DNA of 64,000 nt from a virus. This document shows positions 15,770 to 64,000 of the stretch, one piece after another. Under the pieces are notes generated by a model that made no database searches, was not told where the DNA came from, and saw only the letters and a list, made by a program, of their open reading frames with translations. The stretch spans positions 1-64,000 of the IMG/VR virus record IMGVR_UViG_3300006028_000001; one strand, given 5' to 3'. How positions within the stretch are numbered: the stretch's first letter is position 1; each line of letters opens with the position of its first letter. The position numbers and the translations under genes are program-made.

Positions 15770-15982
15770 AAGTCACGTTTGAAGCATCGAAGCGTGACTT
15801 TCTCCGTGACTTTTCTACCAGGGAAAACAGGGTTAAGTCACGGTCAACGCATCGAAGCGTGACTTTCTCTCGTGACTTCGTCCCAACATGTGGAAGAAGT
15901 CACGCCAAGAAGTCACGTTCGAGACATCGAAGCGTGACTTTCTAATGTTTCCGCAGGTCAAAAAGTCACGCGGAAAGTCACG
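15770..15982. repeat. Iteron array (11x AAGTCACG, both orientations); probable replication origin
   Basis: 6 direct and 5 inverted octamers in a lower-GC intergenic stretch immediately after the primase-helicase. Confidence 0.8.
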
Positions 15983-40701: not shown

Positions 40702-43700
40702 GTGGACGACATCACCCTGCTGCTCGTGCTGGAGGCGCGGGACAAGGCCACCCAGATCCTCGACACCATCACCAAGCGCGTCAACGGATACGGCGACGCC
40801 ACCAAGGCTGCCTCCGCGCAGGCCAGCAGGAGCGCCACCGAAATCGAGGCCGCCAACACCCGCGCGGCCGCGGCGTCCGCCTCCTACGACCGGGCCACCA
40901 AAGCCAGCGCCGAAGCACAGGCCGGACTCAAAGACGCGATGCTGGCGTCCAAGGCCGCCCAACTGGAGGCGGCGGCCGCGGCCCGGGAAGGCTCCGCGTC
41001 GGTCGCCGCCGCGCAGAAGCTGGTCACCGAATCAGCCGACGCCGAAGAGGCCGCGCTGGTTCGGGTGCAGAAGGCCGAACAACTGGCCGCCACCCGGTCC
41101 AAGGAGTTGGCCGAGGCGCAGGCCGCCACCGCCGCGAGCGTGGAGAAGGGCGGCAGCGCACTCAAGACCGCCGGGGTCGCGGCCGGCGCCACCGCCATCG
41201 CCGTCGGATACATCGGCGTCAAATCGATTGAGGCCGCCGCCGACTACCAGTCGTCGACAACCCGGCTGGTCACCTCCGCCGGGGAGCAGCAGTCCGCGCT
41301 CGATTCGGTGCGGCAGGGCATGCTGCAGATGGCCGGTCAGGTCGGCTACTCGACCGACGCCCTGTCGACGGCCATGTACAAGGTGGAGTCCGGCGGGCAG
41401 CACGGCGCGGCCGGGCTCGAAGTGCTCCGCGCCGCCGCCGAAGGCGCCAAGACGGAAAACGCCAACCTGGAAACCGTCGCCGACGCGGTCACCTCCGCCC
41501 TGGTCGACTACCACCTGAAAGCATCCGACGCGGCCACCGTCACCTCCAAGATGGTCGCCGCCACGTCGGCCGGCAAGACCACCTTCGAGCAGCTGTCCGC
41601 CTCATTCTCGGCCATCCTGCCGGTGGCCTCCGCCGCGCACGTCAGCCTGGACGACATCCTCGGCGACCTCGCGAGCATGACGGTGCACGGCATGTCGGCG
41701 CAGCAGGCCAGCCAAAACCTCGCCGACACCATCCGGCACATGCAAAACCCCACCGCCGTGCAGTCGAAAGAACTAGCGCTGCTGGGGATGACCACCACAC
41801 AGCTCGCCGACGACCTGAAAACCAAGGGCCTGTCCGGCACCCTCAACGACATTTCCAACCACGTCATGAAGCTGATCCCACCCGGCTCGGACAAGGTGAT
41901 CGGCAACCTGAAGACAGCGTTGAACGGGCTGAACCCGGCCGTGCGCGAGCTGGCGATGCACCTGTTCGACGGGTCGATGACCGCCAAGCAGTACAGCCAG
42001 GCGGCGCAGGCGCTCGACCCGATCAGCGCCAAGCAGGCCCTGTCGTTCGGCACCCTGGCCGGGTCGATGCACCGAATCGGCGACCAGCAGATGACCGGTG
42101 CGCAGGTGATGCAGACCTACGGGGCGGCGCTGGCGAAGGCCACCGGCGACGCCACCGGCCTGAACACGATGCTGATGCTGTCGGGTGAGAACGCCGGTGT
42201 GACGGCCGGTGCCATCAAGACGGTGTCCAGCGCCACGGCGGAGGCCGGCAACCACGTCAAAGGCTGGTCGGAGATTCAGGGCACCTTCAACCAGAAGCTG
42301 GCCCAGGCCAAGGGGTCGCTGGAAGCGGCGAAGATATCCATCGGCACCGGCCTGCTGCCGGCGGTGACCGCACTGGCCGGCGGCATCGTCAAGGTGATCA
42401 CACCGGTCGCGTCGTGGATGGCCAAACACCAGTCCCTGTCGGCGATCATCCTCGGGTCGATCGGCATCCTCGCCGTGCTCGTGGTCGCCATCTGGGCCAT
42501 CAACACCGCCCTGGCCGCGATGACCGCCATCCCGGTGGTGGCCATCATCGTCGGCATCGTCGCCGCGGTCGCAGCCCTGGTCGCCGGGGTGATCTACGCC
42601 TACAACCATTGGGGCTGGTTCAAGACTGCCGTCCTCGACACCTGGAACGCCATCAAGGTGGCGGCCCTGTTCGTGTGGCACGACGTGCTGGAGCCGGCAT
42701 TCAAGGGCATCGCCGCCGTGGCGACGTGGCTGTGGGCCAACGTCCTCAAGCCGGTGTTCGAAGGTGCCGTCGCACTGTGGCGGGATGTGCTCGCCCCGGT
42801 CGTGATGTGGCTGTGGCACAACATCATCGAGCCGGCGTTCAAGGGCATCCAGATCGAAATCCAGGTCGCCTGGGCAGTCATCAGGACAATCTTCGAGTTC
42901 ATCTCGGCCGTGGTCCGTGACGTGCTCGCACCGGTGTTCCTGTGGCTGTGGCACAACGTCATCGAACCGGTGTGGCAGGGCATCCAGATCGCGGTGTCGA
43001 TCGCGTGGGCGCTGATCCAGGTCATCTGGGGCCTGATGCAAATCGAGATTAAGATTCTCGCCGCGATTTTCACCTGGCTGTGGCACGAGGTGCTGGAGCC
43101 GGTTTGGCAAGGCATCTCGGCGGTCATCTCGTGGGCCTGGAACAACATCATCAAGCCGCTGTGGGCGGGCATGAAAATCGAGCTGCGCCTGCTCGGTGAC
43201 GCGTTCACCTGGCTGTGGCACAACCTGATCGAGCCGGTGTGGAACGGCATCCGTGACACCATCACGGCGGTGTGGAACAACGGCATCAGGCCGGTGTTCA
43301 ACTTCTTCAAGGACATCATCAAAAACGACGTCGCGCCCGCATTCTCCGCCGGGGTTTCGGCGATCGCCGCCGCGTGGAATGGCGTGCTGGAGGTAGCCAA
43401 GGCCCCGGTCCGATTCGTGGTCAACACCGTCCTGAACGATGGCCTGCTCGGCGCCTACAACTGGATCGCGTCGAAGTTCGGCGTCAAACCCGACAACGTC
43501 CACGTGTCGCTGCCCGCGGGTTTCGCCGCCGGTGGCCGCATCCCCGGCGCCGACTCCCACGCCGACAACATGCTGGCCATGGTCGCCACCGGCGAGCACA
43601 TCATGCCCACCGCGCGTACCCGCAAGTGGCTGCCGATCCTGGAGTCGATCCGGCTGCACGACCGGCTGCCGCTGTATCCCGGCGACGGCGCGGGCCTGCG

Positions 43701-44511
43701 CGGCTACGCCGACGGCGGCGTTGTCGGTGCGCTGAAGGGCGCCGCATCCGGGTTGTGGGACCTGTTCACCGACCCGGCCAAGTTGGTCAAGGGACCAATC
43801 AACGCCCTAATCAATTCGATCCCCGGCGCGGGCATCGTCCGGGACATGGTGAGCGGTGGGGCGCATCGGTTGCTCGACGGACTCATCCACTGGATCACCG
43901 GCACCGGCGGCGGCAACGCAGGCTCGGCAATGACCTTTCTGAAAGGCCAGGTCGGCAAGCCCTACATTTGGGACTCGGCCGGCCCCGACGGATACGACTG
44001 CTCCGGCCTGGTCAGCGCCGTATACCTGGCCGCCCAGGGCAAGAACCCGTTCAACCACCTGTTCTCCACCTCCGACGAGGCGCGATACTTCCCGATCGGC
44101 GGTCCTGGCGGCATCCTCACCGCCGGCTGGACCAACCCCGGCGAATCCGGACCCGGTGGCAACTCGGTCGGGCACACCGCCGGTGTCCTGATGGGCATGC
44201 CGTTCGAATCCGCCGGCGGTGTCGGGGTGCGCATCGGCTCCGGCGTAACGCCGGTGTCGGCCTTCGCCCACGTCGGGCACTTCGATCACGGCGGCGCGCT
44301 GTACCCCGGCTGGAACGCCATCTACAACGGGACCCACGGCGTGGAACACGTCGCCGACCCCAACCGGCCGGCCGGCGGCGGCACCGTCGTGTTCGACCTG
44401 CGCGGCAGCCAGGTCATGTCCGATCGGGACATGGACCTGCTCATCGACAAGATTGACCGGCGACTGGTCCGCACCATGCTGCCGGCGGCCGGGGTGCAGG
44501 TGCGGCGCTGA
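40702..44511 (+). CDS. Tape measure protein with C-terminal NlpC/P60 peptidase
   Basis: TP901-like core, Trp-periodic repeats, GKPYIWDSAGPDGYDCSGLV...GHTAG. Confidence 0.92.
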   Translation: MDDITLLLVLEARDKATQILDTITKRVNGYGDATKAASAQASRSATEIEAANTRAAAASASYDRATKASAEAQAGLKDAMLASKAAQLEAAAAAREGSASVAAAQKLVTESADAEEAALVRVQKAEQLAATRSKELAEAQAATAASVEKGGSALKTAGVAAGATAIAVGYIGVKSIEAAADYQSSTTRLVTSAGEQQSALDSVRQGMLQMAGQVGYSTDALSTAMYKVESGGQHGAAGLEVLRAAAEGAKTENANLETVADAVTSALVDYHLKASDAATVTSKMVAATSAGKTTFEQLSASFSAILPVASAAHVSLDDILGDLASMTVHGMSAQQASQNLADTIRHMQNPTAVQSKELALLGMTTTQLADDLKTKGLSGTLNDISNHVMKLIPPGSDKVIGNLKTALNGLNPAVRELAMHLFDGSMTAKQYSQAAQALDPISAKQALSFGTLAGSMHRIGDQQMTGAQVMQTYGAALAKATGDATGLNTMLMLSGENAGVTAGAIKTVSSATAEAGNHVKGWSEIQGTFNQKLAQAKGSLEAAKISIGTGLLPAVTALAGGIVKVITPVASWMAKHQSLSAIILGSIGILAVLVVAIWAINTALAAMTAIPVVAIIVGIVAAVAALVAGVIYAYNHWGWFKTAVLDTWNAIKVAALFVWHDVLEPAFKGIAAVATWLWANVLKPVFEGAVALWRDVLAPVVMWLWHNIIEPAFKGIQIEIQVAWAVIRTIFEFISAVVRDVLAPVFLWLWHNVIEPVWQGIQIAVSIAWALIQVIWGLMQIEIKILAAIFTWLWHEVLEPVWQGISAVISWAWNNIIKPLWAGMKIELRLLGDAFTWLWHNLIEPVWNGIRDTITAVWNNGIRPVFNFFKDIIKNDVAPAFSAGVSAIAAAWNGVLEVAKAPVRFVVNTVLNDGLLGAYNWIASKFGVKPDNVHVSLPAGFAAGGRIPGADSHADNMLAMVATGEHIMPTARTRKWLPILESIRLHDRLPLYPGDGAGLRGYADGGVVGALKGAASGLWDLFTDPAKLVKGPINALINSIPGAGIVRDMVSGGAHRLLDGLIHWITGTGGGNAGSAMTFLKGQVGKPYIWDSAGPDGYDCSGLVSAVYLAAQGKNPFNHLFSTSDEARYFPIGGPGGILTAGWTNPGESGPGGNSVGHTAGVLMGMPFESAGGVGVRIGSGVTPVSAFAHVGHFDHGGALYPGWNAIYNGTHGVEHVADPNRPAGGGTVVFDLRGSQVMSDRDMDLLIDKIDRRLVRTMLPAAGVQVRR

Positions 44512-48773: not shown

Positions 48774-50329
48774 TGGGCGGCGTTCTGCGCCGTGCCGCCG
48801 CCGCTGCCGCGGTAACGCTTCTCGGCCTCAGCTCGGGGTGCGCCACCCTCGACCGTCAAGGGACATGGGCGGTCACACCCTGCCCCTCGGCTGCGGTGCC
48901 GGATCTGACCGGTGACGGCGTAGCTGACTTGGCCGGCAACGACGGAAACAACGCGCTGCACTACTACCGCGGCGACGGCCATGCCGGACTGACCGACGCC
49001 GGCACCGCCTGGGCCGGGTTCGGCCCGTGGTGGGGCTACACCCGCATCACCGTCGCCGACTTCAACGGCGACGGTCACGCTGACATCGCCGGGGTCGACC
49101 CGTACGGGGACCTGCGGGTGTTCTTCGGCGACGGCAACGGTCACTGGTTCGGCGGCCAGTTGATGTGGCCAGCCGGCGGCAACTGGACCAACTTCAAGTA
49201 CCTCGCGGCCGGCGATTTCAACAGCGACGGCAAGGCCGACATCGTCTCCTACGCCGATGACGGCAACCCCCGCCTCTTCGCCGGCGACGGCGCCGGACAC
49301 GTCACCGGGCCGCCGACGATGGGTCTGCCCGCGGGTGCGTTCACCGGCTTCGCCGACATCGTCGCCGGGGACTTCAACGGCGACGGGCTGTGGGACATCG
49401 CCGCCGTCAACGCCTCACATGATCTGGGCCTGTACCTGGGCGACGGCACCGGCCACCTGACCGCCGTTGGTGCTGGCGTACTGATGTGGCCGGGCGGCGG
49501 CCAGTTCACGCGCCGCATCGCCGCCGGTGACTACAACGGCGATGGATTCCTGGACGTCGCGCAGATCACCGCGTCCGGCGCGCTGGCGTTGTACGCCGGG
49601 GACGGCACCGGTCACCTGCGTACCGGCACCGGTCAGCCCGCCACCATGTCCACGCCTGGGGTGTGGTGGACCAACCACCGGCCGGCCGGCACCCCGTCGT
49701 CGGGTTGCTGGCAGGGCCGCACCGTCATCATGCCGCTGGGGGATTCCATCACCTACGGCACCGCGTCCAGCACCGGCGACGGGTACCGCGCGCCGCTGGC
49801 CACCCTGCTGGGCGGGTCCGCGCCGATGGGCTCCGGCTGGCTGTACGAAGGATCCATCAACTCCGGCAGCTCCTTCTGGTCGCACGAGGGCCACGGCGGC
49901 TACACCATCGACCAGCTCAACGCCGGGCTGTCGGGGTGGCTGCCCGCGGCGGGTAACGCCCGCCTGCCGGTGAACCTGATCCTGCTAGACGCCGGCACCA
50001 ACGACTCGGAGCAGAACCGCACCGGCGCGCAGATGCTCACGTCGATGTCGACCCTGCTGGACAGCGTTCACACCGCCGACCCGGCGGCGCGGGTGCTGGT
50101 CGCGCAGATCACCATCACCGGCCTGGACACCCCGGCGCAACAACAGGCGGAGCAGGACTTCGACAACGGCCTACCGGCCCTGGCCGCCGCCAAGGGCACG
50201 TGGGTACGGACGGTGGACATGCGCGGTGTGGCCCTGTCCGGTGACCAGCTGCACCCGGGTGACGCCGGCTACCAGGACATGGCGGGCCGCTGGTACGCGG
50301 CGCTCATGACCGCTGGGTGGTTGCCGTAG
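48773..50329 (+). CDS. Lipoprotein with FG-GAP/VCBS repeats and SGNH hydrolase domain
   Basis: Lipobox LSSGC; five (G)DFNGDG-type repeats; GDSIT, GTND, DQLHP catalytic motifs. Confidence 0.85.
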   Translation: MGGVLRRAAAAAAVTLLGLSSGCATLDRQGTWAVTPCPSAAVPDLTGDGVADLAGNDGNNALHYYRGDGHAGLTDAGTAWAGFGPWWGYTRITVADFNGDGHADIAGVDPYGDLRVFFGDGNGHWFGGQLMWPAGGNWTNFKYLAAGDFNSDGKADIVSYADDGNPRLFAGDGAGHVTGPPTMGLPAGAFTGFADIVAGDFNGDGLWDIAAVNASHDLGLYLGDGTGHLTAVGAGVLMWPGGGQFTRRIAAGDYNGDGFLDVAQITASGALALYAGDGTGHLRTGTGQPATMSTPGVWWTNHRPAGTPSSGCWQGRTVIMPLGDSITYGTASSTGDGYRAPLATLLGGSAPMGSGWLYEGSINSGSSFWSHEGHGGYTIDQLNAGLSGWLPAAGNARLPVNLILLDAGTNDSEQNRTGAQMLTSMSTLLDSVHTADPAARVLVAQITITGLDTPAQQQAEQDFDNGLPALAAAKGTWVRTVDMRGVALSGDQLHPGDAGYQDMAGRWYAALMTAGWLP

Positions 50330-54056: not shown

Positions 54057-54617
54057 GTGGACAACACCGAGTCGGAGCGCCAGAGCTGCCCCCGTCGCAT
54101 GACCGACTGGGGGGCACAGGAACGCGCCAAAGGACTGGACACTTGGAGCGACCGGGCCGCCATGTCCGGGCAGAACCGGGTGGGCAGGTCGTGCTCGTAC
54201 TGCGGTTCACTCGACCCGGACCGATTCATGGAGCTCGTCCGGGACGGCTGGATCGTCGGACCGACCGACAAGGACTACAAGGCGTACCTGGAGTCACCGC
54301 TCACCGACGACGAGAAGGCCGCCAAACGCCAGCGGTGGATGGACCACGACGCGGTTGCCCGGGCCGTCCGCGAGATCGGCGAGAAAGACGGCAAGACCGC
54401 CGAACAGATCCAGGCCGACCTCGACGAGCAGTGGCAGGAGCAGGCGGCCGGCTGGCTACACGGCGACCAGTCGGCGAAGTTCTACTACCAGCACCTGACG
54501 GCCGAACAGCGGACCGAGTTCATCGCCCTCTACAACGAGGGCCGGATGAAGGTTGGCTACCCGGGCCACTTCTACCGACTGCCGTTCTTCTGCCGGTCGA
54601 GCCCGGCGGCGACGTGA
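54057..54617 (+). CDS. Hypothetical protein
   Basis: CPRR...CSYCGSL...KFYYQHL. Confidence 0.65.
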   Translation: MDNTESERQSCPRRMTDWGAQERAKGLDTWSDRAAMSGQNRVGRSCSYCGSLDPDRFMELVRDGWIVGPTDKDYKAYLESPLTDDEKAAKRQRWMDHDAVARAVREIGEKDGKTAEQIQADLDEQWQEQAAGWLHGDQSAKFYYQHLTAEQRTEFIALYNEGRMKVGYPGHFYRLPFFCRSSPAAT

Positions 54618-54832
54618 CCCGCCGCACCGCCTGGATTGTCGGGTTCCTCGCCGGCTTCGTCGCGTGGATCGTGGCCGAGGTGTGGGCCGCGTTCGACAGC
54701 TCGACCAACACGGTGCCGCTGACCAACATCATCGTCGAGCACGTGCCGATGTGGCTCGGCTTTCCGCTGATCGTCGCGTTCGCCGTGTGGCTGGTGCTGC
54801 ACTTCTGGATCTACTGGCGGCGGCGGGCCTGA
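54614..54832 (+). CDS. Small two-TM membrane protein
   Basis: GTGA overlap; two hydrophobic segments. Confidence 0.6.
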   Translation: MTRRTAWIVGFLAGFVAWIVAEVWAAFDSSTNTVPLTNIIVEHVPMWLGFPLIVAFAVWLVLHFWIYWRRRA

Positions 54833-54879
54833 CTCTACTTGCGAAGTAGCGTCATGACGCTACCTTCCGCGCCGATACC

Positions 54880-54997
54880 GGAACGCCGCGACCGGGATTC
54901 GAACCCAGGTCACTGGAACCGGGGCCATCGCCCCTGCGGGCCGGACTCGAACCGTCGGCTTCCGACATGCTCGGCCGCTGCACCACCGCGGCGTCCC
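54880..54997 (-). ncRNA. tRNA-like structured RNA without a canonical anticodon arm
   Basis: Acceptor stem, D arm and T arm (GGTTCGAATCC) fold by eye; a second T-loop (GGTTCGAGTCC) replaces the anticodon arm. Confidence 0.55.
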
Positions 54998-55038
54998 ATG
55001 CTGGCCAGCGCCACAACCGTACCGGAGGCACCCCCGCC

Positions 55039-55299
55039 ATGACCGATCCGACACCGCCGCCGAACGCCCCATCCGAACCGCTCGCGTCGATCTCGGTCAT
55101 CACCGGCATCGGCGCCGCCCTCGTCGGCCTCGCCGTGTCGTTCGGGCTGCACCTGACCGTTGACCAGAAAGCCAGCGTCGTCGCCCTCATCACCGCGGCC
55201 GCGCCGATCGTGGTGTGGCTGTGGGGCCGGCGGCGCACCTACTCGCCCGCCACAGTCAGGCGCATGATGACCCGCGGCGGCCATGAGCCGGGGTCGTGA
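55039..55299 (+). CDS. Holin-like two-TM protein
   Basis: GGAGG RBS; EP...ALVGLAVSFGLHLT.DQ...R..T..P pattern. Confidence 0.7.
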   Translation: MTDPTPPPNAPSEPLASISVITGIGAALVGLAVSFGLHLTVDQKASVVALITAAAPIVVWLWGRRRTYSPATVRRMMTRGGHEPGS

Positions 55300-55504
55300 C
55301 GCCGCCCACGAACACGACGGCTGGACGTTCCGCCGCGGTACGGACGGCAGCGTGACCATCTGGGCCGGCGACGACCGCGAACTTGTCCTCACCGCCGCCG
55401 CGTGGATCCGGATCGTCACCGCGGTGTCGGCTGGCGGACGGCTCGCCTACCGGCAGGCGCAGGCGCTGCACCGTGGCGCCACTGATGGGCGACCCGGGCG
55501 TTGA
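55283..55504 (+). CDS. Hypothetical protein
   Basis: Overlapping ORF HEHDGWTFRR..DGSVTI. Confidence 0.45.
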   Translation: MSRGRDAAHEHDGWTFRRGTDGSVTIWAGDDRELVLTAAAWIRIVTAVSAGGRLAYRQAQALHRGATDGRPGR

Positions 55505-55708
55505 ACCTGCAACACCCGCCGTCGATTGGCCGCTCACATCATGTGGACACGTCCCTTGCCGAACCGCCCGACCGCGATCCGCCGACCACCCGGCCGACGC
55601 CGGGTCACCGCCTACAGCCGGCGCAGACGCAGGTGGTAGACCGGTGGGTCAACCGGACACCGGCCGGCGTCGTCGACTGGCAACACCTGGATCAGCAAGG
55701 AGGCTGAC

Positions 55709-55864
55709 ATGCGCACCCTGATCGCCATCCTGTACGTGGCCGCCGTCATCCTGCTCGTCCTCGCCGCGTTCGGCATCCCCGCCCGCGTGTCACTGGCGCT
55801 GCTCGGCGCCGCCTGCGCACTGCTGGCGTTCTCGCTGCCAGCCATGCAGGCCGGGTTCCAGTAG
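55709..55864 (+). CDS. 51-aa hydrophobic membrane peptide (not in the ORF track)
   Basis: AAGGAGG RBS; MRTLIAILYVAAVILLVLAAFGIPARVSLALLGAACALLAF. Confidence 0.7.
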   Translation: MRTLIAILYVAAVILLVLAAFGIPARVSLALLGAACALLAFSLPAMQAGFQ

Positions 55865-55936: not shown

Positions 55937-55998
55937 CGGGGCCACCCTTCCGATCCCACCCTCGCAGGGTGCGGTCGGGTTGGGTGGCCCCGATTTTT
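55937..55998 (+). terminator. Long hairpin terminator between convergent operons
   Basis: CGGGGCCACCC...GGGTGGCCCCG followed by ATTTTT. Confidence 0.75.
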
Positions 55999-56032
55999 GC
56001 GTTTTACGGAATCAGCCGTCCGTGGTCACCTT

Positions 56033-56239
56033 CTACGCGTCGAACTCGCCTCCCTTGGCGCGGGTGACAAACTCGTCCCACCGACTCTGCGGAATCAGCA
56101 GCACCCTCCCATCCGGCTGCTGCGAGTTGCGCACCGCCACGGTCCCGTCATCGAGGAACGCCACCTCAACGCTTTCATCCGCAGCCGAGTCGGCTACCGA
56201 CGACTTACGCCACTGCGCCCTGCTCAAATCCACGCTCAC
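56033..56239 (-). CDS. DUF397 domain protein
   Basis: WRKSS....ESVEVA..DGTVAVRNS..PDG..L....WDEFV..AKGGEFD. Confidence 0.85.
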   Translation of the reverse strand: MSVDLSRAQWRKSSVADSAADESVEVAFLDDGTVAVRNSQQPDGRVLLIPQSRWDEFVTRAKGGEFDA

Positions 56240-56303
56240 GAGCCCTACCCTTCGATCGTTGAATGGGACGCGGCCGCCGTGGGGAAGGTCGGCGGCCGCG
56301 CGT

Positions 56304-57044
56304 CTAGCGTCTCGTCTGCTGCTGCGCAGGGCGGGGAGCCGGCAGATGGTGACCCAACGCCGGAGCAACCGTCCCAAGCAGCAGCAGCGCCGCACCGGCC
56401 GCCACCACCCCCGCCGCCTTCGTGTCCCACGACCGCTTCGGAAACAACCACCAACCCACCAACACCAACACCACCGCCGCCAGGGCACCGGCCCGCAACC
56501 CCAGCCAAGCGCCCAATCCGGCCCGCCACGCACCCGTCCACGCCAGGAACATCAGCGGCACCCACACCCCGGCGGCCACACCGAGGCGACGGACCGGCCG
56601 CGGACAGCGACGGGCACGCCGCCGCGTCGGCTTCGCCACCTTCACCGACTCGCGGGCTGGGCGCGCGTCCGTCGGTGCCTGCCATGGGGTTACGGCACCC
56701 TTCGCTGCGTCCCGGGCCGCACGCTGACGGCGGGCCTCTGGGATCGGGATCCGCCGCGGGTTGTCCAGATTCTCCTCGTAATTGAAAAGCGGACGCCGCG
56801 CCCGGATCTCCGCCTTCTCGGCAGCCAAGACCGCTGGCTTGTTCGGGTACACCTCGTCCAGCACCCGCCACAAGGTGATCGTGTCCGACCACGGCTGGGC
56901 GTACACGTGCTCCAACAACCGGGCCAGCGGCTCCCGGGCGGTTTCGCCGATGTAGCCGACCGTCTTCGTCTGGTAGTTGGTGTTCGGATCCAACACCTCG
57001 AACTCGTAGACCCGACAGTCCCTCATGATGGCGGGCTGGCTCAC
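56304..57044 (-). CDS. GIY-YIG-like nuclease domain with C-terminal TM helices
   Basis: RVYEF...VGYIGETAR...RLLEH...AEKAEI....PLFN; three hydrophobic segments. Confidence 0.7.
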   Translation of the reverse strand: MSQPAIMRDCRVYEFEVLDPNTNYQTKTVGYIGETAREPLARLLEHVYAQPWSDTITLWRVLDEVYPNKPAVLAAEKAEIRARRPLFNYEENLDNPRRIPIPEARRQRAARDAAKGAVTPWQAPTDARPARESVKVAKPTRRRARRCPRPVRRLGVAAGVWVPLMFLAWTGAWRAGLGAWLGLRAGALAAVVLVLVGWWLFPKRSWDTKAAGVVAAGAALLLLGTVAPALGHHLPAPRPAQQQTRR

Positions 57045-59647
57045 CCCGTCACCTCCCGCGCTTCGGCCGCGCGTTCCTGCTGCCGCTCCACCTCGGCCGC
57101 CGACGGCGCCTGCGGGGCGGGCGACAGTGCCGCCAGCGCGGCCTGCGCCCGGGCCCGGCCCTTCTCAGTGACCCGGTAGTCGGTGTACTCGGTGCCCACC
57201 TTCACTCGCGTGATCAGCCCATCCGCCTCCAACCTCGATGCGGCCCGGGACAGCGTGGACGGCACCGGCGCCTTCCCCCCACCCACTGCGGTCAGCCAGG
57301 CGCGGTGGCCGAAAATCTGCGGCGAGTTGATACCCGGCGCGCCGGCGACGATCGCCAGCACCACATCCGCCGCCGGCAAGGCACCTCCCGTGGCCGGCGC
57401 CTCAACCGCCGAGGTGGCCAGCGACGTGGAGTCCTGCAGCAGGTTCGCCATCCCGTTCGGGCCTTGCCCGAGCCGCCACAGGTCCATCAGCCCCTCCCGC
57501 TCGAACACCGCCACCGTCTCCGCCGGCAGGGCGGGCGCGGTCAACAGCGGCGCGCCGTCCGGCGCGTACAGCTGGTCGAAGACGCAGCCGTCCTCGTCGG
57601 CGCGGGTGACAAACGCCGACCGCAGCGGAACCGGGGGCGCCTCCGCCGACACGGTCAGGCACATCCCGGCCAGCCTGGGCAGCGCCGACGGCATGTAGGT
57701 GCCGGTGTAGCCGGCCAGTCGCGCCTGCTGATCGGGCATCCGGTACAGCCGCAGTCGGGTCAGGCCGGTCAGGCCGCGCAGCACCGAGTTGTTCAGATCC
57801 TGCAGGCCGCCGCCCTGGGTGACCAGCTCCGTCATCTGCGCGGCGGTGCGTTCCAGCCGCTTCTGCTCCGTCAGGGCGCCGACGAACCCCGGGTCGGCGG
57901 CTTCCATGTGGAACTCCTCCCACACGTGCCGCATCGGCGGCCCGTCCCGGTCAACGTTCCACAGGGACTGTTCGGGGCGCAGCCGGCCATGCCGGTCCCG
58001 CTGCTTGCGCGACGCCAGATGCTGCTCGCGGCGTTTGCGTTCGGCGACGATGGACCGAAGGATGACGTCCCGGTGTTCGCGGGTAACACCGATGGGGAAC
58101 ACCCCGACGAAGTCGGCGTAGTCAACCAGCTGCTTCGGGTCGTACAACACGTCGAAGATCCCGGCGGCCAGGTCGTTGAGGAATGTCAAGATCGTTCCTG
58201 CCGTTTTGCCCCCGCCGGTGTGCCCAACCGTGAGTCCGCCGCCGGGCTGACCGGGCACGAACGCGGCCTCCTCCACGTCGTCGCCGAGGATGGACCGTCC
58301 GGTGTGCACGTAGATGGTGCCGTCTTTGGCGATGCGCACCCCGTCGCGGCCCTTCCACCGCACCGCACCACCCAGGGGCGCGTGGTCGGTCAGCAGCATC
58401 AGGCCGCGGTTGGCCCGGCCGTCGGGTCGGTCCACCAGGGACAGGTTTGACGAGTCGACACCAAGCATCGCGGCCAGCCATTCCCGCGACGACATCAGCG
58501 GCGGGGCGCCACCCAACCGGGCCACCAGCGCGCCCGGCTCTGATTCGATGGCGTACTCCCAGCCGATGCGCGTCACCTCCCCGGCGATGGGGGCGGTCAC
58601 CTCGCGGGTTTCCTCCGCGACGATCCAGGTGCGCTTCATCAGGAATCCGGCCGGCACGGTGTCGGAGCCGGCGATCTGCGCCCAACGGGCGGCCATCCGT
58701 CGGCCCATCGCTTCCGGGCTGTCGTCCTCCACAACAACCGGCGTCGCAACGGGCGCGGCGGCGAGACGGTCCGCCTCTTCCTGCGCCCGCCGGGCCGCGT
58801 CCTCGGCGCGTTGCCGGGCCAATTCCCGCAGCCGCCGGCGGGTTTCCCACAGCTCGTCCCAGTGGCTGCGGAACACCACCCACGACGCCAAACAGCCGGA
58901 CAGGATCACGACCGCGCCGTTGGGCAGGACCGGCTCCACGCCGAGCAACGCCGCCACACACAGCCACACCCCGGCGGCAAGCACCCCGGCGGCGACCAGC
59001 CGCGCCCGGGCGCGGGCCTTGCGGGCGGCGCGGCCCACCAGCCGCTCGTGGGCGCGGATCCGTTCGGCGACGTAGGCGGCGATGTAGGCCATCACCGCGC
59101 CGAAGGTGGCCAGCGCAACGCCGACGGCGGCGACCAGCGGCGGATCCGCGGTGGCGGCGGCAACCTCACCGGCGAGCAGCACCCCGGCGGAGGCCGCCAG
59201 CGACGGGGCGTGTCCGCGCATGTCGGCGGCGGTGCGGCGGGCCGCCTGTTCGGCTGCGGTTTTCGCTGCCTCGACCCGCGCAGTCGCAGCGTCGACCGCA
59301 CGTGCTCGGTAGCTCGCGCCGATTTCCCGGAGACGGTTCATCAGTTGCTGACGCGCGCCACCGACCGGATTCCGATCCGACGCGTCAACCGCGAACTCCA
59401 CGAGCCTCAATGGGTGTCGCGGGCAGCACGGCTCCGGGTTTTCCTCGGTTGTCGGTACCCACTGTTCCACCTCGCAACCAGGCTCGTGGCACAGGAACAG
59501 CCGGGCGCCGATCTGCCAGTTTTCGCCGACCGGCACGTGTCGCTCACCCTGCACGAGAGTGCCGTCAGCGGTGCGCCACACGTCGGACCACTTCAGCCCC
59601 GCAGGCAGTTTCGCCTTGGGTGCCTGGGTTGGGACTGGGGTGGTCAC
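57041..59647 (-). CDS. TraB-like FtsK/SpoIIIE DNA translocase
   Basis: TM segments, Walker A GHTGGGKT, YDPK, WEEFH, LVTQ, C-terminal wHTH. Confidence 0.8.
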   Translation of the reverse strand: MTTPVPTQAPKAKLPAGLKWSDVWRTADGTLVQGERHVPVGENWQIGARLFLCHEPGCEVEQWVPTTEENPEPCCPRHPLRLVEFAVDASDRNPVGGARQQLMNRLREIGASYRARAVDAATARVEAAKTAAEQAARRTAADMRGHAPSLAASAGVLLAGEVAAATADPPLVAAVGVALATFGAVMAYIAAYVAERIRAHERLVGRAARKARARARLVAAGVLAAGVWLCVAALLGVEPVLPNGAVVILSGCLASWVVFRSHWDELWETRRRLRELARQRAEDAARRAQEEADRLAAAPVATPVVVEDDSPEAMGRRMAARWAQIAGSDTVPAGFLMKRTWIVAEETREVTAPIAGEVTRIGWEYAIESEPGALVARLGGAPPLMSSREWLAAMLGVDSSNLSLVDRPDGRANRGLMLLTDHAPLGGAVRWKGRDGVRIAKDGTIYVHTGRSILGDDVEEAAFVPGQPGGGLTVGHTGGGKTAGTILTFLNDLAAGIFDVLYDPKQLVDYADFVGVFPIGVTREHRDVILRSIVAERKRREQHLASRKQRDRHGRLRPEQSLWNVDRDGPPMRHVWEEFHMEAADPGFVGALTEQKRLERTAAQMTELVTQGGGLQDLNNSVLRGLTGLTRLRLYRMPDQQARLAGYTGTYMPSALPRLAGMCLTVSAEAPPVPLRSAFVTRADEDGCVFDQLYAPDGAPLLTAPALPAETVAVFEREGLMDLWRLGQGPNGMANLLQDSTSLATSAVEAPATGGALPAADVVLAIVAGAPGINSPQIFGHRAWLTAVGGGKAPVPSTLSRAASRLEADGLITRVKVGTEYTDYRVTEKGRARAQAALAALSPAPQAPSAAEVERQQERAAEAREVTG

Positions 59648-59660
59648 GGTTGTCCTCCTG

Positions 59661-59876
59661 CTATTCGTTGCTGGCGTCGGTCAGCGGTCCCCTGCGCAGC
59701 AACTCGTGCCACTGCCGGTAGTCCTCGTACGGCTGCCCGTTCTCGTCGGTGTGGCCGATGTGACCCAACCAAAGGTCGAGGACGTCGTGACGCCACAGAA
59801 TCCCGAAGCGGTCACGCACACGGGTCACATCGGGGCCTGGTTCGGCATCCATCGACCACGTCTTCGTCACGGTCAT
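59661..59876 (-). CDS. Hypothetical protein
   Basis: GAGGAG RBS; VRDRFGILW...WHELLRRGPLT. Confidence 0.6.
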   Translation of the reverse strand: MTVTKTWSMDAEPGPDVTRVRDRFGILWRHDVLDLWLGHIGHTDENGQPYEDYRQWHELLRRGPLTDASNE

Positions 59877-59880
59877 CTCC

Positions 59881-60087
59881 TCAAGACTCGAAGGTGACGT
59901 GCTCGATGTCCGCAAGGTAGATCTCCTCGGAGCCGCTGCTGGTGTCGATCGACACCAGACCCCGCGAATTGCCGTAGTACCAGTCGTGCAGCAGTTGGGT
60001 CGCCGTCTGGAAGTCGCGCGCGTCAACCGGGTTGACCTGCAGTTCGCGGCCGTTGCGCAGGCCAATTCGAAGCCTGGATGCGCTCAT
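59881..60087 (-). CDS. Hypothetical protein
   Basis: AGGTGGAG RBS. Confidence 0.6.
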   Translation of the reverse strand: MSASRLRIGLRNGRELQVNPVDARDFQTATQLLHDWYYGNSRGLVSIDTSSGSEEIYLADIEHVTFES

Positions 60088-60100
60088 CGCTCCACCTTTC

Positions 60101-60313
60101 TCATTTGCCGTAGTCGGCGCCGTAGTCCTCGCGGATGTCGAAGTCGTGGTCGGTACAGAACCGGTATGCCGAGCGCGGGTCGGACGGCTTCCGGCAGTAC
60201 GTCAGGCTGGGGGTGCCGAACGCTGTGTTCCACGAGCAGCGGCCGGCCGACGTCAACCCCCACTCCTCATCGGTGTACCGGTCACGCGACAGCAGCGGCT
60301 GAAGGTTGGTCAC
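60101..60313 (-). CDS. Small Cys/His protein
   Basis: GGAG RBS; C...C...FCTDH. Confidence 0.6.
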   Translation of the reverse strand: MTNLQPLLSRDRYTDEEWGLTSAGRCSWNTAFGTPSLTYCRKPSDPRSAYRFCTDHDFDIREDYGADYGK

Positions 60314-60331
60314 TGAGTTCTCCGTTCCCGT

Positions 60332-60520
60332 TCAGCAAACGACCAGATCAGTAGCGGCTTCGACGTGGACCTCTTCCACTGGCGTCATCGGCGTCCAAGG
60401 GTGACGCTCATCCCGGAGGCCGCCGCACCGAGGGCTACCCGTCCAGCACAGTCCGATCCGGCCGCAGGCGGTGCACCGGTACGGCACCGGTGGGGTGTCG
60501 TCGTCGAGTTCGAAGTACAC
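60332..60520 (-). CDS. Small Zn-finger-like protein
   Basis: YRCTACG...PRCG...H; start uncertain. Confidence 0.4.
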   Translation of the reverse strand: MYFELDDDTPPVPYRCTACGRIGLCWTGSPRCGGLRDERHPWTPMTPVEEVHVEAATDLVVC

Positions 60521-60529
60521 GTCGATCCA

Positions 60530-60751
60530 CTACCGGTTACTGCGGGCGTCTTGGCGTTCACCGGTTCCGTCGAGCAGATCCAGTTGGGCTGTGGTGACCG
60601 GCCGTCCGTCCGGATACTCGCGGTCGTCGTCGAACAGCACGTACGACGACGTCTCGGGGCTGTCGGTGCCCCAGTTGTGACGGCCCTGATAGGTGCCGGC
60701 CATCCGCAACTGCCGGTGGAACACCCGGTCGCCCTCGCTGAACTGGCTCAT
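60530..60751 (-). CDS. Small SH3-like hypothetical protein
   Basis: FSEGDRVFH...GT...YVLFDD. Confidence 0.6.
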   Translation of the reverse strand: MSQFSEGDRVFHRQLRMAGTYQGRHNWGTDSPETSSYVLFDDDREYPDGRPVTTAQLDLLDGTGERQDARSNR

Positions 60752-61002
60752 CGGTCCGCCATCACCTTCCGGACTCGCTGTACCGCACGCGCGGCCTCGT
60801 CAGGGCTGGCCTCGCCGATCCATTCGCGGTCAGAAATGTTGTCCCATTTACAGATGATGGGCCGTCGGCGCGCGGCTTCGTCCCAGCCGGGATCGTCGGT
60901 AAGTGCGTGCCACGCGCCGAAGGGACCGGGGTGCTCATCGACTCGAACCCACGTGTAGCCGCAGTTGTCCAACCAGGCGGTGTGGTTGTCGGGCTCCCTC
61001 AT
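60748..61002 (-). CDS. Hypothetical protein
   Basis: ATGA overlaps. Confidence 0.55.
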   Translation of the reverse strand: MREPDNHTAWLDNCGYTWVRVDEHPGPFGAWHALTDDPGWDEAARRRPIICKWDNISDREWIGEASPDEAARAVQRVRKVMADR

Positions 61003-61268
61003 CGTTCGACCTTCCTCATCAGGTGCATGTCGCGGCCGGCCAAGCGCACAGCCGCCGCCCGCATTTCGGTTGTCAGGCCGGCGCGGTCCGGGTCGGGCTC
61101 CAGTTGGATGTCGCGGCGGTCGTCCATCTCGACCAGGGCGCGGTCCAACTCGTCCGCGTCGACGTCGGCAAGTTGGGCACGCAGGTCGGCGAGGTGGATG
61201 CCCCCGCCGGGCCTGGAGGTCAGGTCGGCGTAGGCGGCGAGGATTCGCTCCGGCAACGTGCTCACCAC
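60999..61268 (-). CDS. Small winged-helix-like protein
   Basis: ILAAYADL...IHLADLRAQL....DELDRALVEM. Confidence 0.6.
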   Translation of the reverse strand: MVSTLPERILAAYADLTSRPGGGIHLADLRAQLADVDADELDRALVEMDDRRDIQLEPDPDRAGLTTEMRAAAVRLAGRDMHLMRKVER

Positions 61269-61495
61269 GCACCCGCCGTCAAGACGCGTGTCCCCGGCGG
61301 TTCATGCCGAATGAATCCGTGCGGATATTCGGCGGCGAGCAGATCACGAGCCCACTGGACACAGATCGGGTCGTTGCACACCGACAGGCCGCAGCGCGTT
61401 CCGTCGACGTTCAGTTCCTGCCGGGCCAAGGCGGGGCAGTCGTCGGCCTGGCAAGGCGTCCGGACGCTCACCGTTCCATCGCTCGGTGCGGTCAC
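61262..61495 (-). CDS. Hypothetical Cys-containing protein
   Basis: Coupled ORF. Confidence 0.45.
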   Translation of the reverse strand: MTAPSDGTVSVRTPCQADDCPALARQELNVDGTRCGLSVCNDPICVQWARDLLAAEYPHGFIRHEPPGTRVLTAGAW

Positions 61496-61505
61496 CCACC
61501 CTCGG

Positions 61506-61540
61506 CACGACCATCACGACCATCACGACCATCACGACCA
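61506..61540. repeat. 9-bp tandem repeat (CACGACCAT) x3.9
   Basis: Read directly from sequence. Confidence 0.9.
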
Positions 61541-61786
61541 GTCGATCGGCGCGTCACGGATCACCCGACGGACATCCGCCTCCGACAAGCCACGCGCCTG
61601 CCCGAACCGCACCATGTCCGCGTCGTCCCAGCCGGAATTGTGCAGCCGCACCATCGCCCCACCCCGGTCACCGGCCTGCCACAACTCGTCAGCGGCGTTC
61701 TCCGCCCGCTGCCGAGCCACCTCCCGCGCCTGCACGTCCAGCTCCTCGGCCTGCCGGCGCAGCGCCTCGTCACGCTCAAAACCCAC
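61532..61786 (-). CDS. Hypothetical protein
   Basis: GGGAG RBS. Confidence 0.55.
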   Translation of the reverse strand: MGFERDEALRRQAEELDVQAREVARQRAENAADELWQAGDRGGAMVRLHNSGWDDADMVRFGQARGLSEADVRRVIRDAPIDWS

Positions 61787-61798
61787 CGTCGTCTCCCA

Positions 61799-62407
61799 TC
61801 ACCTGTTGTCGAGAAAATCCAGAGCCGCCCGCAGCAACGGAGGCTGCGGCCCGTACAGCCACCCACCAACCCGGTCCGCCACATCCCGCTCAAGTTCCGC
61901 GAGGCTGCCGAACCGGAACCAGGCGGCCTCCCGTGCGTCGTCACCCGCCACCACCGGCAGCCGCGCCGGAACCGCCAACACCGCCACGGTGGTGCACATC
62001 CACGCCTCGTCGGTGTTGCGCGGATCGTGCGCGAACCCGGCCCACACCACCTGCGGCGCCACACCCGCCAGACTCAGGCCGGTCTCCTCGGCCAGCTCCC
62101 GCAGCAGCGTCTCCCCCGCTGACTCACCCGGTTCGACACGGCCACCCGGCACCGCCCAACCGCCGCCGTCCACCCGGTTGATCAGAAGAATCCACCGCTG
62201 CCCAGGTTCGTTCGCGACCACCACCGGGTCGGCGGCCTGGTTTTCACCCCACAGCCGCAGCCAGCCACGACCCGCAATCCCGATACGCTCGCAAGGGTTG
62301 ACCGGGCGGCCGTCCACGACACCGAACGGGACAATCGCAGCCGCCAGCCGTGGGGCGAAGTCCACCTGTGTCGGGTCGTCCGGGTCGACGTACGGCTGGC
62401 TGCTCAC
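61799..62407 (-). CDS. NUDIX hydrolase (ADP-ribose pyrophosphatase/NUDT9-like)
   Basis: GRGWL..WGENQAADPVV; GGRVEPGESAGETLLRELAEETG; DPRNTDEAW; AGDDA. Confidence 0.9.
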   Translation of the reverse strand: MSSQPYVDPDDPTQVDFAPRLAAAIVPFGVVDGRPVNPCERIGIAGRGWLRLWGENQAADPVVVANEPGQRWILLINRVDGGGWAVPGGRVEPGESAGETLLRELAEETGLSLAGVAPQVVWAGFAHDPRNTDEAWMCTTVAVLAVPARLPVVAGDDAREAAWFRFGSLAELERDVADRVGGWLYGPQPPLLRAALDFLDNR

Positions 62408-62640
62408 TGCGTCGCCTCCGCGAGATACTGCTCGGCGGCATCCCCGAGCAGCCTGCGCATCAGCTCGGCCAAGGTGTCGCCCTGCTTGGGCCGCAGCCCC
62501 GCCGCCTGCCCCGCCTCGTCGGGGACGGCGGCGTACCGACCGAACCCGTCAGGGGCGATCCACCACTTCTCGCCGTTTTCGGTTGTCACCACGGCACGCC
62601 GGTTGTTCGCGTACCACGTCACCAAAGGTTGGTCGCTCAC
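62404..62640 (-). CDS. Hypothetical protein
   Basis: GTGA coupling. Confidence 0.55.
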   Translation of the reverse strand: MSDQPLVTWYANNRRAVVTTENGEKWWIAPDGFGRYAAVPDEAGQAAGLRPKQGDTLAELMRRLLGDAAEQYLAEATQ

Positions 62641-62828
62641 CGCACGCTCCAAGCCCGATGCACACCGGTCAGCACGTAGATCCCCGCCGCGTCCGCAGCC
62701 GTCGGAAACTCCCGACCGGCGGCCTCCTGCGACCGCACCCACCGGATGCACCGCTCGGCAGCCTCCGGGCTGGTGAAGTGCGCGTCGACGTACTCACGCA
62801 GCTCGCCGTCATCCACAGGAGTGCTCAC
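62637..62828 (-). CDS. Hypothetical protein
   Basis: GTGA coupling. Confidence 0.55.
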   Translation of the reverse strand: MSTPVDDGELREYVDAHFTSPEAAERCIRWVRSQEAAGREFPTAADAAGIYVLTGVHRAWSVR

Positions 62829-63088
62829 CGCGGATCACCCACCACGGCGTGGATCGCCTCGTCGAGGGTGGGGAACCGCTGCGGGGCGAACTGCCGCGCC
62901 GCCGCCCACGCCTGATCACTCCACAGGTAGGTGTCGTCCTTGGCCCGGTACACCACCCAGCCGTCGCCACCGAGCGGGAGTGCCGGAAGCGCGGAGAGGT
63001 CTCCGTCCTTCTCGTCGAGAATCGTGGCGGTACCGTCGTCGTGCAGCACCACCCGCGAATCCTTGTCGTATCCGCTCACGGTCTTCAC
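62825..63088 (-). CDS. Hypothetical protein
   Basis: AAGGAG RBS before GTG 63088. Confidence 0.6.
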   Translation of the reverse strand: MKTVSGYDKDSRVVLHDDGTATILDEKDGDLSALPALPLGGDGWVVYRAKDDTYLWSDQAWAAARQFAPQRFPTLDEAIHAVVGDPR

Positions 63089-63176
63089 GTTCCTGATCTC
63101 CTTCAATAGACGACCGGGCCGGTTGGCCACCGCGACGGCCCCGAACCAACGCCGGGGCCGCACGGAAACCAGCCGG

Positions 63177-63998
63177 TCAGTCGGCGGTCGCGGCCGACAC
63201 GAACTCGCCGGTCGCCCCAGCCGTGTGCAGCGTGTCCTGCGCGTCCTGCGCCGGCTTCAACCCCGCCTCCGCCGCGGCGACATGATCCGAGGCCGCCGCA
63301 GACGCATCCGACACGTTGGACACATGCCGGCCAAGCTGCGCGGCCACCGCGCCCGCCTCATCCAGCGCCTGCCGGGTGGCTGCGGTGGCGCCAGCGGCGT
63401 TGGCCCGCTCCGACGCCGCCGTCACCGCACCGTCCAAGGCGGCACGTGCCCCGCCCATCTGGTCGTTCAGATCCTGGATCCGCGCCAGATGACCACGGAT
63501 GGCGGCCAGGTCGGCCACGACCAGATCCAGGTTGGTTTCCCCCGTAGGCGCGCCGGCCGCCGGGGTGGCTGTCGATGTGGGCATGGTTCCTCCTGCGTTT
63601 TTTGCGGTTGTGGTGTCAGTAGTTGGTTCCGGCTGCGGTGTGCCGGTCGGGTCTTCCTCACCCGCGGCCCACGGCGGCGGGGTGGGCGCCGCCTCCGGCT
63701 CGGGTTCTGGATCCCACTTCACCGGCGGCGTTACCTCCGGCTGGTCACCGGTGGACTCCGGCGGCACGACGCCTTGGGGTTGCTCGTCACCCGGCCTGGT
63801 GCGGGCCACCTGCCCGGCGGGGGCGCCGGCGCGGCGGGCCTGCTGCGCCGCGACCCACCCCGCACGGAAACCGGCACCGAAACGCCCACCCGCCCGGTAG
63901 GTGCGATCAGCCGACACAATCAGCCGCGCCCACCAGCGCCGCGCCGCCGAACCGGCACGCACCGCCCACGACGGCTGCGCGGGACGCTTCGCCGGATC
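63177..63998 (-). CDS. AICE-type protein with C-terminal helical-bundle (WXG100-like) region, 5' end outside the window
   Basis: Frame open to window edge; internal GGAGGA-ATG at 63584. Confidence 0.55.
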   Translation of the reverse strand, partial: DPAKRPAQPSWAVRAGSAARRWWARLIVSADRTYRAGGRFGAGFRAGWVAAQQARRAGAPAGQVARTRPGDEQPQGVVPPESTGDQPEVTPPVKWDPEPEPEAAPTPPPWAAGEEDPTGTPQPEPTTDTTTAKNAGGTMPTSTATPAAGAPTGETNLDLVVADLAAIRGHLARIQDLNDQMGGARAALDGAVTAASERANAAGATAATRQALDEAGAVAAQLGRHVSNVSDASAAASDHVAAAEAGLKPAQDAQDTLHTAGATGEFVSAATAD

Positions 63999-64000
63999 CG

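Follow-up and report, generated by a model that had tools for sequence, protein, structure and literature searches.

A candidate TraB/Spd-like DNA-translocation cassette of divergent parts in a probable temperate actinophage

Introduction

The closest described counterparts of the locus reported here are the TraB-clt-Spd systems of pSVH1, pIJ101, pWTY27 and pJV1, in which a membrane-anchored ATPase of FtsK fold with one C-terminal winged helix is encoded next to small or polytopic membrane proteins, some of them translationally coupled, and close to an element-specific locus of short repeated motifs (PMC4447253, PMC3583192, PMC4170104). TraB binds the repeats of clt (PMC4447253, PMC3583192), SpdA2 binds palindromes located within its own gene (PMC4170104), and SpdB2 is a DNA-binding protein with four transmembrane (TM) helices that has homologues on actinophages (PMC4447253). 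Here we describe a minus-strand operon on the viral record IMGVR_UViG_3300006028_000001 of IMG/VR (97,469 bp), of which bases 1-64000 make up the stretch that was analysed (64,000 nucleotides, referred to as the window). This operon encodes a divergent FtsK/TraB-like putative translocase of 868 aa (57041-59647, minus strand), which we call the pump, and several membrane proteins around it. The reading that we favour, with a confidence that stops slightly short of even, is that the region is an integral accessory cassette of an integrating temperate phage, encoding a TraB/Spd-type membrane DNA-translocation apparatus built from very divergent parts.

In actinomycete integrative and conjugative elements (AICEs), a tyrosine integrase acting at a tRNA 3' end is found together with the element's own replication functions, only one FtsK-like transfer protein, membrane proteins of the Spd kind and a nearby NUDIX gene. 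pSAM2 and SLP1 are examples of such elements (PMC3218068, PMC3429521). pZL12/phiZL12 and pSLE1 are reported to be ~90-kb plasmid-phages of Streptomyces that hold virion genes together with a tra gene needed for their conjugal transfer and that replicate as plasmids with ParA and ParB (Zhong et al. 2010, as cited in PMC3583192 and PMC4487206). Cultured Streptomyces phages likewise encode FtsK/SpoIIIE-like genes, the products of which are recognisable by standard annotation (PMC13587820, PMC11536984, bioRxiv 10.1101/2024.02.16.580700). Since pZL12 is published and since FtsK-like genes are routinely noted in Streptomyces phages (PMC13587820, PMC11536984), the kind of element that we describe is already known and the present one is a divergent variant of it; what is new is the cassette, the arrays of short motifs inside one of its genes and the nuclease coupled to the pump.

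Results

Predicted anatomy of the pump and its remote links to Tra proteins

The AlphaFold2 model of the pump (predicted local distance difference test score of 83, and ~90+ over residues 310-740) has the fold of the FtsK-HerA superfamily. From its N-terminus, the model displays a Cys-rich beta domain in which C53, C58 and C75 are invariant and H78 nearly so, a coiled coil, about four TM helices (residues ~150-260), a beta-rich domain, a P-loop ATPase and, at the C-terminus, a winged helix-turn-helix (wHTH) with a beta wing (~759-841), the latter aligning to the MarR_2-type C-terminus of Tra-like proteins. Among 34 homologues, G475, G478, G480 and K481 of the Walker A motif GxxGxGK (475-481) are invariant, as are E578 of a Walker B-like segment (E578 F579 H580) and the downstream R597 and R600. 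The best Foldseek matches were the FtsK motor (6t8g, E = 4.3e-11), the conjugative coupling protein TcpA (7.9e-10) and EccC (1.7e-9), meaning that chromosomal FtsK/SpoIIIE is the best structural match for the motor, and the C-terminal winged helix of the pump is gamma-like. An initial annotation of this DNA had predicted an FtsK/SpoIIIE-like membrane ATPase with a C-terminal wHTH, and the TM helices, the Walker A motif, the winged helix and the Foldseek matches all bear this out.

At the level of sequence, the relationship is far more distant. A phmmer search of the pump against PDB sequences returned nothing, and a profile of its family gave only a weak match to FtsK in the same collection (E = 0.33), yet with the Walker A and the DPK motif aligned. 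When the pump family was compared by hhalign with a set of 60 more distant matches, the two aligned from the TM region through the winged helix (P = 100%, E = 1.4e-57); 34 of these 60 proteins carry PF01580 and some carry MarR_2 or FtsK_gamma. The distant set in turn aligned with Tra, the proven transfer protein of pIJ101, from the region preceding the ATPase to the C-terminal wHTH (P = 98.8%, E = 7.6e-17), providing a remote profile homology between the pump and the TraB-clt-Spd systems via intermediates. The ESM clusters nearest to the pump consist of actinobacterial FtsK+MarR/IclR proteins. The pump also has the architecture of Tra/TraB proteins, with an N-terminal membrane anchor, a translocase domain and a single C-terminal wHTH, to which the Cys-rich N-terminal domain comes as an extra compared with the TraB-clt-Spd systems. 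Altogether, the pump appears to be a remote and divergent branch of the actinomycete Tra/FtsK-like translocases that falls outside the Pfam family, and it would work like TraB as far as its anatomy tells, without demonstrable family membership. Its own family comprises ~40 proteins with 36-80% identity, nearly all of them metagenomic and none with a Pfam domain, and an exhaustive profile search of 1.84 billion representatives collected 166 proteins at E <= 1e-3.

A conserved cassette of membrane proteins and a coupled nuclease

Loci related to the pump region were taken from three IMG/VR contigs (G001-G003) and eight metagenome contigs, locus L026 being a duplicate of the IMG/VR locus L004; numbers of distinct loci are given in brackets. 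A homologue of g082 (contig 63177-64259, minus strand, of which 63177-64000 lies in the window) was found immediately upstream of the pump gene in 10 of 10 related loci (9 distinct). It encodes a bitopic membrane protein of 360 aa, in which a TM helix at the N-terminus is followed by a Pro/Thr-rich linker and an Ala-rich C-terminal region. The order g083-g082-pump was kept in all 6 loci with enough flanking sequence (5 distinct), g083 (contig 64256-65089, minus strand, beyond the window) encoding a polytopic membrane protein, and g084 (contig 65139-65387, minus strand, beyond the window) and a g088-family gene sit farther upstream of g083 in the relatives. Downstream of the pump gene, a homologue of the nuclease gene g070 was present in 6 loci (5 distinct). 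Synteny in relatives, which the initial annotation had put forward as a check, is thus a property of these genes. The arrangement also differs from that of the TraB-clt-Spd systems, in which the membrane genes follow the translocase gene, whereas here they precede it.

In whole-contig comparisons, G001 and G002 had little in common with this phage apart from the cassette. The terminase large subunits (TerL) of G001 and G003 are unrelated to that of this phage, which has no relative in G001-G003, and G002 and G003 carry integrases. Since the cassette is common to contigs that share little else with this phage, it behaves, by this comparison of gene content, as an accessory block that is mobile among large temperate actinophages. 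The FtsK-like genes of cultured Streptomyces phages differ from this conserved six-gene cassette with its motif arrays.

The cassette gene lying farthest upstream, g088 (contig 66775-68088, minus strand, beyond the window), encodes a protein of 437 aa with a hydrophobic four-TM core (~88-216) and a C-terminal HTH-like segment that was read from the sequence by eye. This layout is that given for SpdB/SpdB2 (PMC4447253): ~400 aa, a four-TM core, a putative DNA-binding C-terminal part and a gene beside that of the translocase. Its neighbours in ESM space are DUF2637 and SpdB_N/HTH_SpdB_C clusters (0.85-0.88), which we take as a lead only.

At the other end, g070 (56304-57044, minus strand) encodes a membrane-anchored GIY-YIG-like nuclease of 246 aa, the start of which overlaps the stop of the pump gene by 4 nt, as expected for translational coupling. 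The protein begins with the nuclease domain, continues with three TM helices in its C-terminal part and ends in an Arg-rich tail. It had no Pfam match; it matched a PHROG endonuclease at 1.3e-5, and its nine best Foldseek matches were all UvrC GIY-YIG domains (probability 0.92-0.99, with E values of only 0.05-0.2). Residues Y31, G33, T35, R37, R42, E45, H46, E76 and N88 are invariant among 6 homologues, so that the modelled protein has both a GIY-YIG-like fold and the Tyr, Arg, Glu and Asn of the catalytic site.

A pump coupled to a membrane nuclease could also serve an exclusion or defence module, in which the two would act on incoming DNA from phages, plasmids or AICEs and the motif arrays described below would mark self or titrate a binder. 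Such a role would account for a nuclease that is conserved and coupled to the pump, of which the TraB model has no need, and for a cassette that behaves as a mobile block among unrelated phages, a habit of defence and exclusion cassettes; ATPases of FtsK/HerA fold are also known from defence systems, and SIR2-HerA is among the Foldseek matches of the pump. However, the combination of a TM anchor, an FtsK fold and a C-terminal wHTH is Tra-type, as are the remote homologues, and motif arrays borne by the element itself look like a cis-acting handling site, so that we consider this module quite unlikely.

Hexamer arrays inside the g088-family gene

An unbiased scan, in which the densest 1.2-kb window of each 6-mer was scored against the rest of the sequence, placed the top 6-mer cluster of each of five whole sequences within the g088-family gene. 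The hexamer itself varies: GGTCGG in this phage (G000; 27 copies of the core hexamer on both strands, 66.7-68.1 kb), TGTCCG in G001 (31 copies), GAGACG in both G002 (47 copies) and L032 (43 copies), and GCAACG in L031 (18 copies). The arrays, which lie 3.5-8 kb upstream of the pump gene, are bipartite, with one part on either side of the ~600-bp core that encodes the TM helices; in this phage, the GGTYGG arrays occupy contig 66804-67239 and 67836-68079. Copies occur in all three frames and in both orientations, and some form tandem 8-nt units. The k-mer cluster scan found no array of similar strength on pIJ101 and thus failed as a positive control for clt.

We then asked how many copies would be expected if the protein sequence was kept fixed and synonymous codons were resampled. 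Within open reading frames (ORFs), 26 copies were observed against 9.8 expected in G000, 31 against 4.4 in G001, 41 against 3.3 in G002, 31 against 4.4 in L032 and 18 against 2.2 in L031, corresponding to z = 6.2-22. This excess shows that selection acts on the DNA itself and that the disordered protein linkers tolerate it. That the arrays would be unrelated to the pump, and instead a by-product of low-complexity coding, a replication origin or a regulatory site, appears improbable. They do sit in Pro/Thr- or Glu/Thr-rich linkers, the recognition helix of the pump does not covary with the motif, and replication origins embedded in genes are known from other phages. On the other hand, low-complexity coding would hardly give a z = 6-22 excess in all frames and both orientations with 8-nt tandem units, the arrays accompany the cassette in phages whose replication modules differ, and an AT-richer iteron-like cluster beside the primase-helicase gene of this phage is a better candidate for an origin. 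As for the protein that would read the arrays, g088-family members, with their variable HTH-like segment at the C-terminus, are better candidates than the pump, the covariation between HTH and motif being confounded by phylogeny.

The motifs recognised by chromosomal translocases, KOPS and SRS, are 8-mers that are scattered along the chromosome and show strand polarity. Compared with these, the motifs found here are clustered in 1.3 kb and are mixed in orientation. A closer parallel is SpdA2-sps of pIJ101 (PMC4170104), where, as in g088, the coding sequence of an Spd-operon protein holds motif sites that shape the peptide, the binding of g088 being putative; SpdA2 is a small, soluble protein with one to three 12-bp palindromes, whereas g088 encodes a 4-TM protein with dozens of hexamers in two arrays.

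These features open the way to another explanation, in which the cassette would be a segregation or retention device: the membrane HTH-like protein would bind centromere-like arrays and the pump would clear or move phage DNA through closing septa, ensuring its inheritance by compartments and spores in a manner resembling FtsK/SpoIIIE and RacA. The pump fold is indeed nearest to the FtsK motor, and dense arrays of mixed orientation are more like centromere or anchoring sites than the few direct repeats of clt (PMC3583192); in pIJ101, SpdA2/sps affects segregational stability and not transfer, and Spd functions have been argued to be stability functions (PMC4170104). Nevertheless, a phage that integrates leaves its lysogen without need for a separate segregation system, and no ParA-like partner was found in the contig. 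We regard a segregation role as unlikely, and it differs from a transfer apparatus mainly in the barrier that is crossed.

Two other repeats were seen in the related contigs. In G001 (L012), 13 copies of the palindrome GTGCAC lie within 230 bp at 49396-49626 (also L026:3076-3305), ~1.4 kb upstream of the gene holding the TGTCCG array. In G003 (L020), a related phage contig of 103 kb, 45 overlapping GGGGGG words lie within 260 bp at 4583-4840.

The operon belongs to one complete tailed-phage genome

The first 70 and last 70 bases of the IMG/VR record are identical, IMG/VR classifies it under 'direct terminal repeats' and CheckV gives a completeness of 100%. When the source run was assembled independently, a 16.4-kb contig was obtained that covers 93,470-97,469 with zero differences and extends beyond the last base of the record. 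The record is read as circular on the basis of the 70-bp terminal overlap, the overrunning contig not showing what comes next. GC content is 70% along the whole contig, on which 153 genes were called from codon usage. No host gene was recognised among the ORFs scanned, and neither a tRNA nor an Rfam family reached its gathering score anywhere on the contig. Megablast of 55937-64000 against phages and plasmids gave nothing beyond a 35-nt chance match, and a search of sequencing runs found the stretch in one rhizosphere metagenome only, with no RNA run listed.

A plus-strand block (42-55864) holds the replication and morphogenesis genes. The former include a polymerase exonuclease subunit, a methyltransferase, a sliding clamp, RusA and a primase-helicase, and the latter, spanning 26-47 kb, include TerL (26239-27612, plus strand), the portal (27630-30011, plus strand), a tape measure of 1269 aa (40702-44511, plus strand) and a minor tail protein, in line with the complete morphogenesis set joined to the operon that had been annotated initially. 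The last plus-strand gene encodes a 51-aa TM protein and ends at 55864. Between this gene and the convergent minus-strand block, which runs from 69081 down to 56033, lies a GC-rich hairpin (55937-55992, -54.1 kcal/mol, z = -5.4) that none of 200 shuffles folded as well as and that is followed by a U-run; as annotated, it is strong and placed between the late region and the operon, and it is an intrinsic terminator for the plus strand. No integrase, att repeat or host gene separates the late genes from the operon, and no long direct repeats flanking the module were found.

The initial annotation had listed a separately integrated AICE as the outcome that would contradict it. Only one att core was found on the whole contig, and because the contig is complete with overlapping ends and without a second att site, the minus-strand operon and the morphogenesis genes form one element and not a phage next to a separate AICE.

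Integration at a tRNA-Ala gene and probable host

Outside of the window, contig 91,656-93,017 encodes a tyrosine integrase (PF00589; phrog_1 at 1e-51). About 150 bp upstream of it and on the opposite strand lies an attP core (contig 91,464-91,505, L002:7464-7505, minus strand), a region that Rfam first picked up as a tRNA-like 3' end. A 28-mer taken from it has exact matches in numerous genomes of Micromonosporaceae as well as in a few other phyla, and the identity reaches 44-47 bp in most of the matched genomes, where it corresponds to the 3' end of tRNA-Ala(GGC), a classical layout for the attP of an integrating phage. Matching genera include Micromonospora, Catellatospora, Plantactinospora and Dactylosporangium, among others. 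Because attP matches the tRNA-Ala(GGC) gene of Micromonosporaceae, the host is probably a filamentous, Micromonospora-like member of this family.

In its lifestyle, the element looks like an integrating temperate tailed phage that is closer to AICEs than to plasmids, judging from its gene content. It shares with AICEs a tRNA-targeting tyrosine integrase, replication functions of its own, a single FtsK-like protein, Spd-like membrane proteins and a nearby NUDIX gene; it differs from them by its 97 kb, its full tailed-virion module and its phage-type replication genes (primase-helicase, clamp and exonuclease), and by a NUDIX gene that is not conserved with the cassette. The initial annotation had instead proposed a candidate conjugative phage-plasmid, which we take to mean a non-integrating element of the pZL12 type. 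The contig does close on itself, and pZL12 and pSLE1, which are reported to carry a tra gene with ParAB (PMC3583192, PMC4487206), are a precedent among Streptomyces plasmid-phages. Here, however, 44-47 bp of a host tRNA-Ala 3' end are copied at a distance of 150 bp from a tyrosine integrase, and the helicase and the pump are the only proteins with classical Walker A motifs (GxxxxGK[ST]/KGGxGK[ST]), leaving aside one chance match in the integrase. No ParA-type Walker A was found in the 153 ORFs, not every ORF having been profile-scanned, so that a ParB or Rep could be missed. The pump also has no tblastn match in the plasmid collection. Since the integrase and the tRNA-Ala attP are present and no ParA was found, the phage-plasmid label is not supported, and we hold this version to be highly improbable.

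Genes and sequence features around the cassette

Ten small soluble ORFs (59661-63088, minus strand), including a NUDIX hydrolase (61799-62407, minus strand; PF00293, E = 1e-17), lie between the pump gene and g082. The initial annotation had counted the NUDIX and small genes as parts of a transfer operon, but relatives have none of them at this position between the conserved genes, which leaves them outside of the conserved cassette. The final gene of the minus-strand block encodes a DUF397 protein of 68 aa (56033-56239, minus strand; PF04149, E = 5.6e-16); it was correctly placed from the start, as was the NUDIX gene, and it has no homologue in the related loci, hence is not conserved with the cassette.

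The phage has a second NUDIX domain, fused to the C-terminus of the portal (residues ~613-738). At 61506-61540, the 3' end of a small minus-strand ORF holds a perfect tandem of about four copies of the 9-nt unit CACGACCAT. At 15770-15976, the gap that follows the primase-helicase gene has the lowest GC content of the window (0.627) and holds six copies of AAGTCA(C) within 200 bp, a candidate replication origin. In the late region, no endolysin domain was recognised between 50 and 56 kb, and 54614-55864 holds only small holin-like TM proteins, which leaves the lysis region of the initial annotation a tentative label. Residues ~783-1194 of the tape measure match a PHROG annotated as endolysin, which may be the sole recognisable wall-degrading domain of the late region. 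A tail-region protein (48896-50329) consists of FG-GAP repeats fused to a GDSL lipase/esterase domain. Beyond the window, the contig encodes two adjacent DUF6221 paralogues, a homologue of M50 site-2 proteases and a sigma-70-type (ECF-like) sigma factor (74,714-75,471, 82,362-83,126 and 95,074-96,330).

Discussion

If the cassette is a TraB/Spd-type apparatus, its parts can be arranged into a working model. A membrane-anchored FtsK-fold pump of hexameric type with a C-terminal winged helix would be preceded in the operon by a polytopic (g083) and a bitopic (g082) membrane protein and by a 4-TM/HTH-like protein (g088) laid out like SpdB/SpdB2, whose own gene bears the two hexamer arrays, and it would be followed by a membrane-anchored GIY-YIG nuclease translationally coupled to it. 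The 4-TM/HTH protein, or else the winged helix of the pump, may bind the arrays and thereby recruit the phage DNA, once excised or while replicating, to the membrane complex. This DNA would then be driven as a double strand by the pump through septal cross-walls or into a neighbouring hypha, with the nuclease possibly opening or processing DNA at the pore, and the phage would spread without virions.

A number of our results count against such a model, starting with the pump itself. It had no relevant match in Pfam, PHROG or NCBIfam. PF01580 matched nothing on the whole contig even at E <= 10, although the same search recovered pIJ101 Tra as a positive control at 9.3e-10, and the pump had no FtsK_gamma match either, which also sets it apart from FtsK/SpoIIIE. 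A direct hhalign comparison of the pump family with pIJ101 Tra was not significant (P = 1.8%), and tblastn of the pump left all of the 72,556 plasmids and 50,697 phage records searched without a match. Thus, what stands of the initially proposed 'TraB-type' is the Tra architecture and the remote link through intermediates, and what does not is membership of the Pfam family, resemblance to any plasmid protein and direct similarity to Tra. No relative of the pump came up when 185,579 species genomes were scanned with a pattern, a pattern-based result being weak evidence of absence, and since the family is unseen in these genomes, no lysogen or transconjugant is known. The partner protein fares similarly: g088 did not align with pIJ101 SpdB (hhalign P = 0.2%), did not match DUF2637 (PF10935) and had no tblastn match among plasmids or phages.

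The arrays and the gene content add to these difficulties. With 18-47 hexamers of mixed orientation inside a coding gene, the arrays are far bigger than known clt loci, which have 3-9 repeats in ~50-175 bp. The presumed recognition helix of the pump (PSTxSRAA) hardly changes among lineages whose hexamers are different and is not the same in the two that share GAGACG; since it does not covary with the motif, the arrays are probably not read as TraB reads its TRS repeats. Finally, no GntR-type kil-kor regulator was found, a nuclease is no part of the TraB paradigm and, unlike the TraB-clt-Spd systems, the carrier is a tailed phage.

We would go further only with reserve. On a broader proposal, which is possible but which we hold with somewhat less assurance than the translocation cassette itself, the pump, its partners and their relatives represent a new phage-restricted family of cassettes for double-stranded DNA translocation, each with a TraB-like pump, an SpdB-like membrane protein whose C-terminal HTH-like segment would dock on the dozens of lineage-specific hexamers within its own gene, and a pore-associated GIY-YIG nuclease. 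Such cassettes would serve the virion-free spread of integrating tailed phages within and between mycelia of Micromonospora-like hosts, would make their carriers chimeras of phage and AICE and would hop as a unit among unrelated phages.

Since the pump family is invisible to Pfam and PHROG, modules of this kind are probably under-counted in viromes. The hexamer arrays inside g088 offer a concrete candidate for the cis site, and the coupled membrane nuclease bears on a question raised by TraB itself, namely how a closed circular duplex passes a hexameric pore. Should the cassette transport phage DNA from one hyphal compartment or mycelium to another, the temperate phages of filamentous actinomycetes would possess a second means of spreading that needs no capsid. 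Receptor-based resistance would have no effect on it, and the boundary between phages and AICEs would become less clear.

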